A DNA stretch of 64,000 nucleotides from an uncultured Gemmatimonadaceae bacterium. GTDB taxonomy: Bacteria; Gemmatimonadota; Gemmatimonadetes; Gemmatimonadales; Gemmatimonadaceae. The stretch is taken from positions 768,001 to 832,000 of the forward strand of contig CAWGJO010000020.1 in assembly GCA_963822945.1 (NCBI GenBank), written 5' to 3'. Below are positions 3,001-64,000 of this stretch, in pieces; the stretch's first letter is position 1; each line of letters opens with the position of its first letter. The position numbers are program-made.

Positions 3001-6000
3001 CGAGGGATTAGCGACCTCCCCGCCGGAACGCGCGTCGCCACGACGTTTCCTCGCATCGCCGCGCGCTTCTTTGCCGACAAGGGGTGCCGGGTGGCAATCG
3101 TTCCGATTTCCGGTGCGGCCGAAATTGCGCCCCACATCGGAATCGCCGACGTCATCGTCGATCTCGTGTCGACCGGGTCCACGCTCCGGGTCAACGGCCT
3201 CCGGGAAGTGGAGACGGTGATGGAATCGACCGCCCGTCTGATCGTCGCCACGCAAACCGATCGTCTCGACCAGGCCCAGCAGGAAGCGGTCGGGGATCTC
3301 GCCGACGCGCTGCTCTCGGTGCTGCGCGCCCGCGGGCAGCGCTACCTGATGGCCAACATTCCGCGCGACCAGATGCCGCAGGTGCGTGACATCGTCCCCG
3401 GCCTCAACGGTCCGACCGTGATCGACATTCTGAACGGCGGGGCGATGGTGGCAGTCCACGCGGTGGTTCCGGCCGCCGGCGTCTTCCGCACCGTGGCTCG
3501 GCTCAAGGCACTGGGGGCGCAGGGGATTCTGATCACCCGCATCGAGAGGTTGATGGCATGATGCCCGCAACAGCCCTCAGGTACTTCGGGGCTCTCGACG
3601 CGCTCGACTCGGCCACGCGAACCGCCCTGCTCGATCGCACGACCTCCATCGATCCCCGGATTCGTGAGACCACGGCCACGATTCTGGCCGACATTCGGGC
3701 GCGCGGCGATACGGCGCTGCGCGAACTGGCGACGCGGTTCGACCACGTACAACTCGAAAGTCTCGAGGTGCCCCGCGCGCAGTGGAAGGCGGCGCTCGCC
3801 GGCGTTCCCCGCGATTTGCGTCGCGCCATGGAGCGAACCGTCGAGAACGTGGCCTCGGTGCATCGCGCGTTCCTGCCCGCGGCGACGGAGACTTCCCCAG
3901 AGCCCGGCATCGTCGTGGGGCGTCGTCCGGATCCGCTGGGCCGGGTAGGCGTCTATGCGCCGGGCGGACGCGCAGCGTATCCGAGCAGCGTTCTCATGGG
4001 AGCGGTGCCCGCCCGGATTGCCGGCGTCCACGAGATCATGGTCTGCTCACCCCCCGGCCCGGACGGTCTGCCGAGCGCCGTGGTCCTCGCCGCCGCCGAA
4101 CTGGCCGAGGCCGATCGCGTGTTCGCGTTGGGCGGTGCCGGCGCTGTCGCTGCGCTCGCGTTCGGCACCGAGACGGTGCCGCGCGTCGACCGGATCGTGG
4201 GCCCGGGTAATGCGTTCGTGGCCGAGGCGAAATTGCAGGTGTCGGGCATGGTCAGCATCGATTCCCCGGCGGGACCGAGCGAGTTGCTGGTCATCGCCGA
4301 CGCCACCGCGTCACCGGAGGTGGTGGCCCGAGAACTGTTGGCCCAGGCCGAGCACGACCCGCGCGCGTGCGTCGTGGCCGTGGTGGAGGGTGCTTCGCTG
4401 GCGGCTCGGTTGCGCGACCAGATCGAGCGCTTGCTCCCGGCACACGAGCGGCGGACGATCATCGAGTCCGCGCTTGCCGGGCAGGGCGCCATTCTCTGGG
4501 TGGACACGGTGCGAGAGGCCGTGGAGTGGAACAACGCATACGCTCCCGAGCATCTCCTGGTCTGCGCCGCTGACCCCGATGCATGGCTTCCCGAACTGCG
4601 CAATGCCGGGACGGTGTTCCTTGGCGAACGCGCGTCGGTGTCCTTCGGTGACTACATGACGGGTGCGAACCACGTACTCCCAACCGGTGGGTTGGCGCGC
4701 TGTTATTCCGGGCTGTCGACCATCGATTTCTTCCGATGGACCACGTACCAGCGCGTCGATGCTGCTGCCGCCGAACGCCTCGCACTCGACGTGGATGCGT
4801 TTGCGCGCGCCGAGGGGCTTCCGGGGCATGCCGTCGCCGCGCGTGCCTGGGCCGGAGACCGCTGATGTCGAATCTCGTTCGCGAACTGCTGCGCCACACG
4901 CGCCCCTACACCGCCACCGACGCCGGTGGCGCGGTGGATCTGAGCGACAACACAAGCCTGTGGGGGCCGCCGCCCGCGGCAGCCGAAGCGCTGCGTTCGC
5001 TGGATGCGGCCGCGCTGGCGCGCTACCCCGCGATTCCCCCCGCCGCGTTGAATCGCGCGCTCGCCTCGTACGCGGGCGTCAGCGACGACATGATCGTTGC
5101 CGGCTGCGGATCGGACGACCTCATTGACTGTGCCATGCGCACGTTCGCGCAACCGGGCGACACCATCGCATTTGCGGTGCCGACGTTCTCCATGGTGCCG
5201 ACGTTCGCCGCCATCAACGGCCTGCGGACACACGCGGTTCCCTTCTCGCCCGACCTCGATCTCGACGTCGATGCGCTGTTGGCCCCGAGCCCCCGCCTCG
5301 TATACCTCTGTTCTCCCAACAACCCCACCGGCGCCGCGCTTCCACGCACCACCATCGAGCGCGTACTTCGCGAAGCGCCCGGCGCCGTACTGCTCGACGA
5401 AGCATACGGCGAGTTCTGCGATGCGCCCGGATTCGCACTCGCCAGGGAGCACGAGCGACTGGTCGTCACCCGGACGCTGTCGAAGGCGTTCGGGCTCGCC
5501 GGACTTCGCATCGGCTATGCGGTGCTCGCTCCATCTCTGGCCCGCGCGTTGGAAACCGTTCGCGGACCGTACAAGTTGAACGCCGCCGCGGCGGCGTCCG
5601 CCACGGCATCGCTCACTGAAGGTCTGCCCTGGGTGCGAGCGCACGTGCAGGAAGCCGTTGACGTCCGCCAACGGCTCGGCGCCCGGTTGGCGGACATCGG
5701 GCTGTCACCCCTGCGCTCCGACGCCAACTTCTTCTGCATCCCCTGTCGCGACGCGGTGCGCGTCGCGGCGGCGTTGTTGGGACGGGGCATAGCCGTCCGA
5801 CTCCTGCGCGACCTTCCGCCCGTCACGCCGGCCCTCGCAGCGTCCGGCGGCGCCGCATTGCGGGTTGGCGTCGGGCCCTGGCCGGTCATGGAACGCCTGC
5901 TTTCGGCCATGCGTGAGGAGGCGGCGGCATGCGCGTGAGTGTGTTCGACTACGGCGCCGGCAATCTGCATTCGCTGGTCAAGGCGCTCGAGACGCCATCG

Positions 6001-63000: not shown

Positions 63001-64000
63001 TGACGGCCTGGAGTTGAGTGGCCTGCGTGACGAGCTCGAAATCGACGCGAGTCACCTGGCTGAGGACGACGACGATATTGTCGCGTGTCTGCGGCTGAAA
63101 GCCGATGCGGCGCACGGTCACCGAATAGCGGCTTCCGACTTCGAGGCCGGGTACCGTATAGCGTCCGTCGGTACGAGTCGTGACACGGCTCGTGAAACCG
63201 GTGGTCCGGTTGACGACCTGGATCTGGGCGCCTTCGACGCCCATGTGCTGGTCGCTCGTCACGGTGCCGGAGATGGCGCCGGTGGTGACACCCTGCGCGG
63301 CCAGCGCCGCAGGCGTCGCGATCGCGAAAGCGACGGCGACCAGCCCGCGGAGCGTCCAACGAGGAATCGACATATGGTTTTCCTGAAATGAGGGGCGGTG
63401 CTTCGTGTGACGCCGCGACAGCCGCTGTGGCCATCACGCGCGACGGCGTCAGTGAAACCGGACATTCAACGGCGGCGGTCACGTTTTGGAGTAGAGCCGC
63501 TGTAACGAGGCCGTCACCGAAGAGCGTCCCGATGTCCGTCGCCGCTGCGAGAAGTGGCGATGAATGTAGAAGCGGGGTTCACGGAAGGCGAGGTGATTTC
63601 CGAGAACGCGAATGACACGGCATGTCATTCCCTGGGGGCGCATACATTGGGCTCCAACGTTCTTCTCGGCGCCCGGCGCGCGTGTTCCGGCACCCGCGGT
63701 CGTCCCGGCAGGGCCGGAAACACGACGGGCCGCCCGTGTGGGCGGCCCGTCGAGATGCTCAGCTTGTAGCTGTGATCAGAACGCGTACTTCACGAAGAAC
63801 TGGAGCTGGTAATTGGACGCCAGATTGTTGGGGTTCCAGGTCTTGAAGTTCGGGTCGAAGGTGTAGATGGGCTGGCCGGTGAGCAGATCCGCGCCGGTGT
63901 GGCCCCGGTAGTTCAACAAGCCCTGGGCGCCGCCGAAGGTGGTGTACTGCTGATGGCCCCAGTTGTTGTTGAGCAGGTTGAGGAAGTTGAAGACCTGCAG

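Follow-up and report, generated by a model that had tools for sequence, protein, structure and literature searches.

A GC valley with two minima, at dnaN-dnaA and at parS, in the origin region of an uncultured Gemmatimonadaceae clade

Whether GC-rich genomes are kept so against AT-biased mutation by GC-biased gene conversion, reportedly proposed for bacteria by Lassalle and co-workers, or by selection, is a long-standing dispute. Along the chromosome, an AT-rich and fast-evolving terminus with conserved origin-proximal genes is said to have been described by Daubin & Perriere in 2003 and by Sharp and co-workers. At the origin itself, the AT-rich unwinding element beside dnaA (DUE) extends over tens of non-coding bases. 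The passages on recombination in a survey of 102 species place its maximum near the origin in 65% of them, and link recombination positively to GC (PMC11879095). Reports of a mutation-accumulation wave, in the sections that concern the origin, describe substitution rates symmetric about oriC, with the origin driving the nearby pattern, on a scale of hundreds of kb and with a polymerase most accurate close to the origin (PMC6606806, PMC6106087). A literature search of limited scope found no published GC3 valley at a bacterial origin. Here we describe one.

Two minima in the origin region

The window, meaning the whole stretch of 64,000 nucleotides analysed here (from position 768,001 of contig C20, accession CAWGJO010000020.1, of an uncultured Gemmatimonadaceae genome, G000), falls in GC from 0.65-0.69 to 0.499 at 34001-36000 when read in 2-kb bins. 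Among 3814 intervals of 4 kb on 45 contigs (mean GC 0.684, sd 0.0216), the lowest of the 3.97-Mb genome, at 0.511, is the one at 33001-37000, on dnaN-dnaA, and all six of the lowest are found at C20:799-805 kb. Cumulative GC skew along the contig is lowest at 805 kb, and the skew changes sign at 34-37 kb of the window, beside dnaA, as expected of a bacterial oriC. The low GC and GC3 that an earlier note on this DNA had reported at dnaA-dnaN are thereby confirmed, and the origin-region valley is real, not an artefact. No clear cluster of DnaA boxes was found in the 64 kb, which hold one perfect and seven one-mismatch boxes by a consensus that may not be the lineage's own. The features referred to below are as follows, in window coordinates.

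10000..54000, basin with GC3 below 0.80 (genome median 0.88)
16476..18398, plus strand, mnmG/gidA
18000..21000, second GC3 minimum, V-shaped and centred on parS
18552..19274, plus strand, SIMPL/DUF541 gene (GC3 0.61)
19295..19310, perfect parS-type palindrome just upstream of parA, the genome's only one
19328..20182, plus strand, parA (GC3 0.58)
20218..21153, plus strand, parB, with N-terminal, HTH and C-terminal (dimerisation) domains
27337..30261, minus strand, polA (GC3 0.71), within the parS-oriC interval
31000..39000, main V-shaped minimum of clade-mean GC3, with a peak of G000-G012 four-fold divergence
33992..34358, plus strand, RNase P RNA (rnpB; RF00010, 300.7 bits)
34426..35538, minus strand, dnaN (GC3 0.445; 0.39-0.58 in 8 genus relatives)
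35539..35699, dnaN-dnaA spacer, centre of the GC3 minimum and candidate for part of oriC
35700..37115, minus strand, dnaA (GC3 0.508; genus relatives 0.43-0.59; outside the genus 0.74-0.91)
37125..37133, sole perfect DnaA-box 9-mer of the window, in the dnaA-rpmH gap
37302..37466, plus strand, rpmH (ribosomal protein L34)
37467..37832, plus strand, rnpA
38308..39777, plus strand, yidC (longest ORF from 38056)
39798..41147, plus strand, mnmE

For GC3, our own gene caller supplied 2901 ORFs of at least 150 aa, with a genome median of 0.881, as against 0.445 for dnaN and 0.508 for dnaA. The earlier note had called dnaN the lowest of all; its GC3 is indeed very low, but it ranks sixth, behind five gap-filling ORFs of doubtful reality. 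Values climb from 0.44-0.51 at dnaN-dnaA to about 0.8 by 25-30 kb, the means by distance from the origin being 0.61 (0-5 kb, n = 6), 0.735 (5-10 kb, n = 7), 0.73 (10-20 kb, n = 17), 0.795 (20-30 kb, n = 18), 0.83 (30-45 kb, n = 21) and 0.85 (45-70 kb, n = 41). The positive correlation of GC3 with distance claimed earlier holds (Spearman rho 0.745, n = 69, p = 2e-13), though not at the earlier figures of 0.82 and n = 70. Beyond the basin a weaker depression continues past the left edge of the window and rightward to about 64 kb. A check of mirror symmetry found both sides of the origin depressed, the left one broader and with an extra focus at parS; GC3 has recovered by about +30 kb on the right, and on the left it reaches 0.88 only more than 250 kb away. 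GC1 and GC2 are shifted in the valley too (GC1 most in the core, by -0.12 in an AraC-like gene, -0.08 in rnpA and -0.05 in dnaA, fading by +20 kb), and protein composition is altered alongside codon composition. Within the valley, yidC, upp and a pilin gene have higher GC4 and lower divergence than dnaA and dnaN.

In 500-bp bins the clade-mean GC3 takes two V shapes that span gene borders, one at 34.5-36 kb and one at parS. The main V runs from 0.63 at 31 kb through 0.43-0.45 at 34.5-36 kb to 0.76 at 39 kb, and four-fold divergence between G000 and its close relative G012 tops out in it at 0.54-0.59 (for dnaN the four-fold p-distance is 0.568 at an amino-acid divergence of 1.9%). At parS, GC3 is 0.57 in the 19.0-19.5 kb bin versus 0.69-0.73 alongside, a dip (0.617 versus 0.723, p = 7e-18) where G000-G012 four-fold divergence has a local maximum of 0.39. 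Maxima of synonymous divergence in this one close pair coincide with both GC3 minima, and inside genes GC3 varies with how far a site lies from parS and from the dnaN-dnaA spacer. The two foci cross gene borders: the valley is positional, not genic. The earlier picture of a smooth, symmetric drop gives way to one with a second sharp minimum at parS/parA (19-19.5 kb) and unequal flanks.

The site at 19295, a 16-bp palindrome next to parAB, is a perfect match to what we take to be the parS consensus. It is unique genome-wide even at up to 2 mismatches to that consensus, and no further parS sites were found across the valley at that threshold. It is conserved in place in all 8 genus relatives, of which one carries a single mismatch, and also in genome G021, which has no valley. 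The locus has the traits of a chromosomal ParABS locus: parS beside parAB, a ParA ATPase, and a ParB with N-terminal, HTH and dimerisation domains.

Distribution and descent

The valley is seen in all eight same-genus genomes that could be examined (the set holds 16, the other eight being without a full dnaA on a usable contig), with 4-kb minima of 0.488-0.576; the earlier count of only three genomes with the deep form was too low. Three further public MAG contigs (L065, L072 and L076) have it too, and dnaN GC3 is low (0.39-0.58) in these and in the eight genus genomes. The valley is absent from both sister-genus genomes (G021, G019) and from all five genomes of other families (G025, G027, G037, G034, G026), and 16 loci with dnaN GC3 above 0.60 have no comparable dip, so that its proposed use as an origin locator is sound within this clade and not beyond it. 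Gene order is shared with the valley-less sister genera, whose homologous ORFs fall in this G000 region in 35/37 and 22/25 cases, and partly with other families. Orthologues of valley genes outside the clade have GC3 of 0.73-0.92, and no valley is present in relatives that share the gene order at 70-75% GC.

The 11 valley-bearing rows of the DnaN tree form one clade (98/100), set on a long stem branch and nested in Gemmatimonadaceae, and the identity hierarchy among relatives is regular. Core four-fold p-distances from G000 to genus members other than G012 are 0.60-0.70, or 81-94% of saturation, and core GC4 is 0.49-0.69 throughout genus comparisons. Quartet site patterns favour neither alternative topology and do not point to import from any of the sampled lineages; homoplasy is 4x in the core. 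Parsimony GC* in the core agrees with a stationary simulation (G000-G012 polarisation with three outgroups leaves most sites unresolved, and polarisation by G006 only, strongly biased in GC-rich flanks according to simulation, was used only to place the core not far from equilibrium). The valley is native, vertically inherited and kept at a lower-GC equilibrium in one uncultured, soil-dwelling Gemmatimonadaceae clade. The earlier proposal that a positional process tied to the origin writes the gradient is upheld by dips that cross genes, by same-order sister genes without a dip, by a state kept across near-saturated synonymous divergence, and by the shift in protein composition.

Substitution rates and competing explanations

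Rates were obtained by matrix logarithm under a reversible model at four-fold sites, with a far set of 301 genes (65156 sites); all estimates come from one close pair of MAG assemblies (G000-G012), and each zone supplies 4-20 genes. These rates replace the raw proportions of C<->G and A<->T change as neutral yardsticks, since where W<->S flux is high such proportions are inflated by two-step paths via the other base class. Across GC4 bins of far genes (whose divergence is mosaic, chi2/df 6.9), C<->G is flat at 0.063-0.077, W>S goes up from 0.39 to 0.66 and S>W down from 0.082 to 0.036. Measured against GC-neutral changes, W>S per AT site increases with GC and S>W per GC site declines, the behaviour of a fixation bias. 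The origin zones sit on this far-gene curve with the same constants. In the core, W>S/C<->G is 3.85 (CI 2.8-5.7) where 3.82 is predicted and far genes have 7.27, and S>W/C<->G is 2.54 where 2.53 is predicted; in the parS-oriC interval, W>S/C<->G is 4.66 (predicted 4.80). The pattern is unchanged without dnaN and dnaA. The kappa of the predicted curve was taken from the core itself, so only the curve's shape, and not its level, is an independent test.

C<->G change runs at 1.9x in the core and at 1.7x between parS and oriC (CIs 0.096-0.167 and 0.097-0.141, versus 0.067-0.072), 1.06x in the right shoulder and 0.7-0.9x in the flanks. That shoulder (5-15 kb) has a low GC4, 0.776, without the C<->G excess, so the two signatures are not found together throughout. 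In amino-acid divergence the core stands at 0.097, the parS-oriC interval at 0.074 and far genes at 0.038; the excess falls with depth, from 2.8x (G012) to 1.24x (G010), and this can be read as free-site saturation or as an offset.

Since W>S falls and S>W rises against GC-neutral changes, on the curve of the bulk genome, the preferred reading of the valley is that the GC-favouring fixation bias has collapsed locally. That the valley is a native zone of such collapse, probably poor in recombination, around oriC and parS has in our judgement an even chance of being right. GC-biased gene conversion, or recombination-enabled selection for GC, would keep four-fold sites of the bulk genome at about 0.90 GC, whereas mutation by itself would bring them to an equilibrium near 0.45-0.5 GC. 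The bias would fade to about zero around two cis-acting sites, oriC at dnaA-dnaN and the one parS, which precedes parA; near both, composition would relax to the mutational equilibrium, synonymous change would be faster, and weakly constrained protein positions would drift to AT-rich codons. Rarity of homologous recombination in the origin-parS domain is the most likely reason for a loss of bias, and we propose that neutral divergence is 1.7-1.9x older or faster there, and amino-acid divergence raised, because of it. The mosaic divergence among far genes is likewise consistent with less gene flow in the domain. Two links are inferred, a dependence of the GC bias on recombination and an exclusion of recombination from this domain. 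A point against this explanation is that the sister genera have the same parS and gene order yet no valley; and given the published recombination maximum near the origin, a cold origin would be unusual.

Local AT-biased mutation would have several-fold more GC>AT around oriC and parS at an unchanged fixation bias, whether from damage of unwound DNA, from a repair shadow under DnaA and ParB complexes, or from nucleotide-pool imbalance after initiation. We think it unlikely, although within 2.5 kb S>W per GC site is 10x (transitions) and 18x (transversions) the baseline with W>S per AT site at about 1x in absolute terms, total four-fold divergence at the centre is 4.5x, and both foci lie on protein-bound cis sites; origin-centred variation in mutation rate has also been documented by mutation accumulation in E. 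coli and Vibrio (PMC6606806, PMC6106087). Such mutation needs an extra and unexplained C<->G rise of 1.4-1.9x, without which W>S/C<->G is expected near 7.3; the observed 3.9 is what the fixation-bias curve predicts. DnaN differs at 7/369 residues (1.9%), which is about 0.45 times the median for the window region (identity 95.8%), and this relative rate matches that of valley-less pairs (roughly 0.3-0.5, by eye from unfiltered rows; the control pairs G034-G026, G025-G027 and G021-G019 have saturated silent sites and shadow-frame hits mixed in), so DnaN divergence is not several-fold raised. Four-fold GC skew, 0.24 in the core versus 0.16-0.19 at 5-45 kb, has no spike, and a cause that acts through time since initiation does not predict a separate V at parS. 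Of the mechanisms first offered as examples, exclusion of a GC-favouring bias thus fits the rate decomposition and the skew better, and AT-biased damage less well. Selection for AT-rich, easily opened or organised origin-partition DNA, cancelling the genome-wide GC bias, would bring the same net reduction of bias and hence the same W>S/S>W pattern as bias loss. Its benefit could be in oriC unwinding, or in ParB spreading and SMC loading at parS, and it suits minima that are centred on two functional cis sites and a valley stably kept in every lineage of the clade. We give it a rather slim chance: it predicts neither the raised C<->G (1.7-1.9x) nor the 2-2.5x amino-acid divergence, it would have to act on thousands of single silent sites over about 50 kb, and the 70-75% GC relatives with the same gene order do without a valley.

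Differences between adjacent valley genes (yidC, upp and the pilin gene as against dnaA and dnaN) might suggest that dnaA, dnaN, parA and their neighbours use AT-ending codons through expression or translational selection. This is very improbable: the comparison with orthologues, at GC3 0.73-0.92 outside the clade, contradicts gene-intrinsic codon usage, within genes GC3 tracks the distance from parS and from the dnaN-dnaA spacer, and GC1 and GC2 shift as well. That lower-GC foreign DNA replaced the origin region long ago and has since been slowly ameliorating was an alternative raised in the earlier note, and one could point to low GC as the usual mark of acquired DNA and to a true low-GC island on the same contig, 75-110 kb away. 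We find it scarcely credible. In 500-bp and 2-kb bins the valley has graded, V-shaped borders, not block-like ones, and its housekeeping genes show synteny with sister genera and, in part, with other families. DnaN places the clade inside the family, the genus has kept the valley throughout although its silent sites have diverged almost to saturation, and the core is at compositional equilibrium. Horizontal transfer was ruled out on the graded edges, the core gene content, the vertical DnaN tree and the stationary composition.

The collapse of fixation bias might be taken one step further, in that DnaA-oriC and ParB-parS complexes would themselves bar recombination, and with it GC-favouring conversion or selection, from kilobase-scale zones, which in this clade would have widened and merged to roughly 50 kb, and would leave a general and so far undescribed footprint. 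We offer this tentatively, as possible but doubtful. If it is so, silent-site GC would be a direct read-out of the recombination landscape, oriC and parS could be placed in MAGs, and high bacterial GC would be held by a recombination-dependent force.

Significance and relation to known systems

The parS focus, the co-located peak of synonymous and amino-acid divergence and the wider distribution are new relative to the earlier claims. The clade amounts to a natural experiment in one chromosome, with the same lineage, genes and mutation machinery, in which silent GC varies from 0.43 to 0.93 with distance to two defined cis sites and rates behave as under a pure change in fixation bias. If recombination is excluded there, base composition is a map of recombination, the origin/partition domain forms a compartment of its own in evolution, where purifying selection on essential replication genes is weaker, and oriC and parS can be located in metagenome-assembled genomes from such valleys. 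Under a mutational cause, the valley would be the first trace left in evolution by a mutation hot zone centred on the origin.

With the DUE the valley shares AT-richness at a replication origin, but it is about 50 kb long and mostly coding. Low-GC genomic islands likewise extend over tens of kb at a GC far under the genome mean, whereas the valley has graded edges, core genes (dnaA, dnaN, rnpA, yidC, mnmE, polA, parAB, gidA and mutS), a vertical phylogeny and a stationary composition; the sharp borders, accessory or mobile genes with patchiness, discordant phylogeny and amelioration of an island were not found in it. A true low-GC island does occur at C20:878-912 kb, with a flat profile and sharp edges. 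The mutation-accumulation wave, symmetric about oriC, is comparable in its oriC-centred rate variation, but it is a mutation-rate effect, and the valley, at +-25 kb, better fits a change in fixation bias. As in the origin-terminus structuring of GC3, composition and silent rate depend here on replication landmarks, but with opposite sign, on a scale about 100 times smaller, in one clade and with a focus at parS. In recombination-linked GC heterogeneity the likeness is that silent GC of the valley clade behaves as under a fixation bias, and the difference is that here the bias appears to collapse in a kb-scale zone centred on oriC and parS.

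The valley and its landmarks

The assembly (3,974,642 bases, 45 contigs, 68.4% G+C) was annotated with a self-trained gene caller written for this analysis, with gaps filled by long ORFs and genes named from NCBIfam, Pfam and Rfam. The window spans C20:768001-832000. The cumulative GC skew minimum of contig C20 lies at 805 kb, which makes the window the replication origin region.

Features of the window (window positions, strand)
2.7-10 kb: his operon
Listed between the his operon and mnmG/gidA: two M16 peptidases, murB
16.5-18.4 kb, +: mnmG/gidA
In the window, +: SIMPL gene
19.3-20.2 kb, +: parA
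Listed after parA, +: parB
Listed between parB and polA: BMP-type ABC transporter, pilin
27.3-30.3 kb, -: polA
Listed between polA and RNase P RNA: Ser/Thr kinase, histidine kinase, AraC-type regulator
33992-34358: RNase P RNA
34426-35538, -: dnaN
35700-37115, -: dnaA
Listed after dnaA: rpmH, rnpA, yidC, mnmE, upp, holA, mutS, ddl

In 2-kb windows, GC falls from 0.65-0.69 at the window ends to 0.499 at 34001-36000. An earlier note had proposed that third-codon GC (GC3) declines toward oriC, and this is borne out: the six lowest of 3814 4-kb windows over all contigs (mean GC 0.684, sd 0.0216) all fall within C20:799-805 kb, the lowest of them at 0.511, and GC3 rises with origin distance (Spearman rho 0.745, n = 69, p = 2e-13). 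Against a median GC3 of 0.881 over 2901 ORFs of at least 150 aa, dnaN has 0.445 and dnaA 0.508. Mean GC3 climbs from 0.61 (0-5 kb, the core) through 0.735 (5-10 kb), 0.73 (10-20 kb), 0.795 (20-30 kb) and 0.83 (30-45 kb) to 0.85 (45-70 kb), while the dip in GC1 and GC2 is confined to the core. The symmetry claimed for the valley holds only in that both arms are depressed; the right regains 0.88 by 30-45 kb, the left only beyond 250 kb. The one other long low-GC stretch, a surface-polysaccharide island at C20:878-912 kb (GT1/GT2/GT4 glycosyltransferases, NeuB, Wzy-type ligase, flippase, Asn-synthase-like genes), has the flat GC3 (about 0.64) and sharp edges of an ordinary acquired island, in contrast to the valley. 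(NeuB is there split into two ORFs, probably by a frameshift.)

Averaging GC3 in 500-bp bins over eight deep-valley genomes (the shallow G015 omitted) resolves two V-shaped minima, both crossing gene borders. The main one (0.43-0.45 at 34.5-36 kb) spans dnaN and the dnaN-dnaA spacer. The second (0.57 at 19.0-19.5 kb) contains the genome's only perfect parS-type palindrome, at 19295, and codons within 750 bp of this site average 0.617 (n = 481) vs 0.723 at 1.5-4 kb (n = 1476; Mann-Whitney p = 7e-18). A parS-type site lies about 0.5 kb upstream of parA in 8/8 genus relatives (one with a mismatch), and is kept in the valley-less sister genus G021.

Some further features of the region stand beside these results. 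Replication-associated GC skew at four-fold sites declines along the left arm (C20 0-805 kb) from about 0.18-0.24 within 45 kb to 0.13 (45-100 kb), 0.084 (100-300 kb) and 0.055 (300-800 kb); with the slow recovery of GC3, this makes up a gradient on the scale of the chromosome, distinct from the valley. The gidA, SIMPL, parA, parB and ABC transporter genes (14383-26435) all lie on the + strand left of the origin, hence head-on to the leftward fork, an orientation unusual for this conserved set of genes. Between rnpA and yidC lies a putative gene of 122 aa (37842-38207, +; GC3 0.51), into which the longest yidC ORF (start 38056) extends with its 5' end; the putative gene has no family match, and homologues (47-52% identity) were seen in three genomes only, G001, G006 and G009.

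Distribution and descent

The valley is present in all eight of the 16 same-genus genomes in which a complete dnaA sits on a contig of sufficient length to examine (4-kb minima 0.488-0.576 vs flanks of 0.63-0.70; dnaN GC3 0.39-0.58, dnaA GC3 0.43-0.59), G015 being the shallowest, and in three more public contigs, L065, L072 and L076; the earlier count of three genomes of one genus was thus too low. Sister genera G021 and G019 show no valley on contigs that cover one side to about 3 kb past dnaA, their dnaA/dnaN GC3 (0.73-0.78) being similar to that of neighbouring genes. Nor is there one in five genomes from two other families of the order (dnaN GC3 0.79-0.92), or a comparable dip in any of 16 public loci with dnaN GC3 above 0.60. 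Gene order is conserved, with 50/53 to 70/70 homologous ORFs mapping to the same region within the genus and 35/37 and 22/25 in the two sister genera, so that the same genes occupy the same places, without a valley, outside the clade. This contradicts gene-intrinsic codon usage as the cause, and the valley's recurrence in 12 assemblies independent of one another, several of which have contigs close to 1 Mb, contradicts an assembly artefact. No conclusion here draws on the unpublished genome G022.

In the DnaN tree, the 11 valley-bearing sequences of the main clade are a single clade (98/100) nested among other Gemmatimonadaceae; L076, which also has the valley, falls just outside at an unsettled position, so that the tree is compatible with one origin of the valley or with more than one. 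Relatives found in the DnaN search carry the label uncultured Gemmatimonadaceae. Loci labelled Limnocylindrales (Chloroflexota; L072) and Thermoanaerobaculia (Acidobacteriota; L070), with dnaN 81% and 73% identical to that studied here, fall within the Gemmatimonadaceae part of the tree and are therefore probably mis-binned. The stem of the valley-bearing clade is long (0.35 changes per column vs 0.04-0.18 inside it), and the origin of the valley seems to have coincided with either a burst or a long period of change in DnaN.

Core four-fold p-distances to genus members other than the close relative G012 are 0.60-0.70, or 81-94% of saturation for their compositions, and yet four-fold-site GC (GC4) in the core is kept at 0.49-0.69 across them. 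No relic of foreign DNA would have survived at sites this near saturation; together with the nesting of DnaN, this contradicts a foreign origin, including the ancient lower-GC replacement with amelioration that the earlier note had offered as an alternative. Polarised counts, compared with a stationary simulation, place the core near compositional equilibrium. Clade orthologues also have lower GC1 and GC2 than those outside, with FYMINK residues up and GARP residues down, so that the pressure is not limited to codon choice; the GC1 shift is strongest in the core (AraC-type regulator -0.12, rnpA -0.08, dnaA -0.05, dnaN -0.04), and the composition shift fades by +20 kb. As a separate observation, the DnaA/DnaN ratio of amino-acid divergence is 5.7 vs G012 and 1.6-2.9 vs deeper clade members, against about 0.8-1.3 in valley-less pairs, a sign that selection on the initiator DnaA itself may be relaxed or altered.

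Divergence and substitution rates

G012, the only close relative (four-fold p-distance 0.214 over +-45 kb), was compared over G012:C11:1-475000; 393 of 447 tblastn hits were kept (coverage at least 0.7, identity at least 60%), every one of them collinear. Four-fold divergence rises from a baseline of 0.10-0.17 to 0.20-0.31 at 5-15 kb and 0.459 less than 2 kb from dnaA, and is back at baseline beyond about -19 kb and +14 to +25 kb. Binned by 1 kb, it has two peaks, 0.39 at 19 kb and 0.59 at 35 kb, and levels off at 0.26-0.35 in the stretch that separates them. For dnaN the four-fold value is 0.568, with amino-acid divergence of just 1.9%. The excess falls on the branches of both G000 (the genome studied here) and G012, and quartet site patterns favour neither alternative topology. 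Among far genes, divergence is strongly overdispersed (chi2/df 6.9), as a recombination mosaic would give. Two lone genes that lie 334 and 326 kb to the left of the origin (near C20 470 and 478 kb) have four-fold divergence of 0.41-0.44 and amino-acid divergence of 20-26%, among neighbours with four-fold values of 0.05-0.17; the likely explanation is allelic replacement from a more distantly related lineage, which points to recombination in these lineages.

The raw shares of C<->G and of A<->T differences rise near the origin too. They were dropped as a measure because two-step paths inflate them, and instantaneous rates were instead taken as the matrix logarithm of the symmetrised 4x4 table under a reversible model, for this one genome pair with few genes per zone and our own gene calls. 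Genes with fewer than 60 four-fold sites were removed, as were far ORFs with GC4 below 0.75-0.78, several being wrong-frame calls (almost no four-fold differences, 7-13% amino-acid differences). Sorted by rising GC4, the 301 far genes (65156 sites) have a flat C<->G rate (0.063-0.077), while the rate per AT site of AT-to-GC change (W>S) goes up from 0.39 to 0.66 and the rate per GC site of GC-to-AT change (S>W) drops from 0.082 to 0.036. This pattern is that of a GC-favouring fixation bias rather than of variation in mutation. The origin zones fall on the same curve with its constants unchanged, and do so without dnaN and dnaA; the curve's level is set by a mutation-bias constant from the core itself, so only its shape is an independent check.

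Rates relative to C<->G, observed (predicted)
Core, <5 kb, GC4 0.60: W>S 3.85, CI 2.8-5.7 (3.82); S>W 2.54 (2.53)
parS-oriC interval: W>S 4.66 (4.80); S>W 1.83 (1.89)
Right, 15-45 kb: W>S 7.81 (7.12); S>W 1.08 (0.98)
Far genes: W>S 7.27 (7.58); S>W 0.83 (0.87)

The C<->G rate itself is 1.9x baseline in the core, 1.7x in the parS-oriC interval, 1.06x in the right shoulder and 0.7-0.9x in the flanks. The corresponding values of amino-acid divergence are 0.097, 0.074, 0.054 and 0.030-0.031, and far genes have 0.038.

Candidate explanations and published parallels

The boldest reading in the earlier note was that a distance-dependent process linked to the origin produces the gradient. The best-supported explanation is a GC-favouring force that fades around both oriC and parS: whatever keeps silent sites at about 0.9 GC would drop to near zero there, and composition would relax toward mutational equilibrium. 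Because the two cis sites and the interval between them show a moderate rise in neutral divergence and a clear one in amino-acid divergence, we infer that this domain sees little homologous recombination, and consequently little gene conversion or less effective selection. Local AT-biased mutation input around the origin is a possible alternative, but it needs an ad hoc rise in C<->G change and fits poorly both DnaN and the skew, which at four-fold sites is 0.24 in the core vs 0.16-0.19 at 5-45 kb, without a core spike of the kind strand-specific damage would give. Selection favouring AT-rich DNA would produce the same W>S and S>W pattern as a fading GC-favouring force, but leaves the raised neutral and protein divergence unaccounted for.

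No account of a GC3 valley around a bacterial origin turned up in the literature searched. The usual trend in bacterial chromosomes, an AT-rich terminus, has the opposite sign. Two published phenomena come closest: in E. coli, a wave of mutation rates symmetrical about the origin (PMC6606806), and GC variation that is linked to recombination (PMC11879095). The latter source describes recombination as tending to peak near origins, the opposite of the recombination-poor origin domain proposed here.
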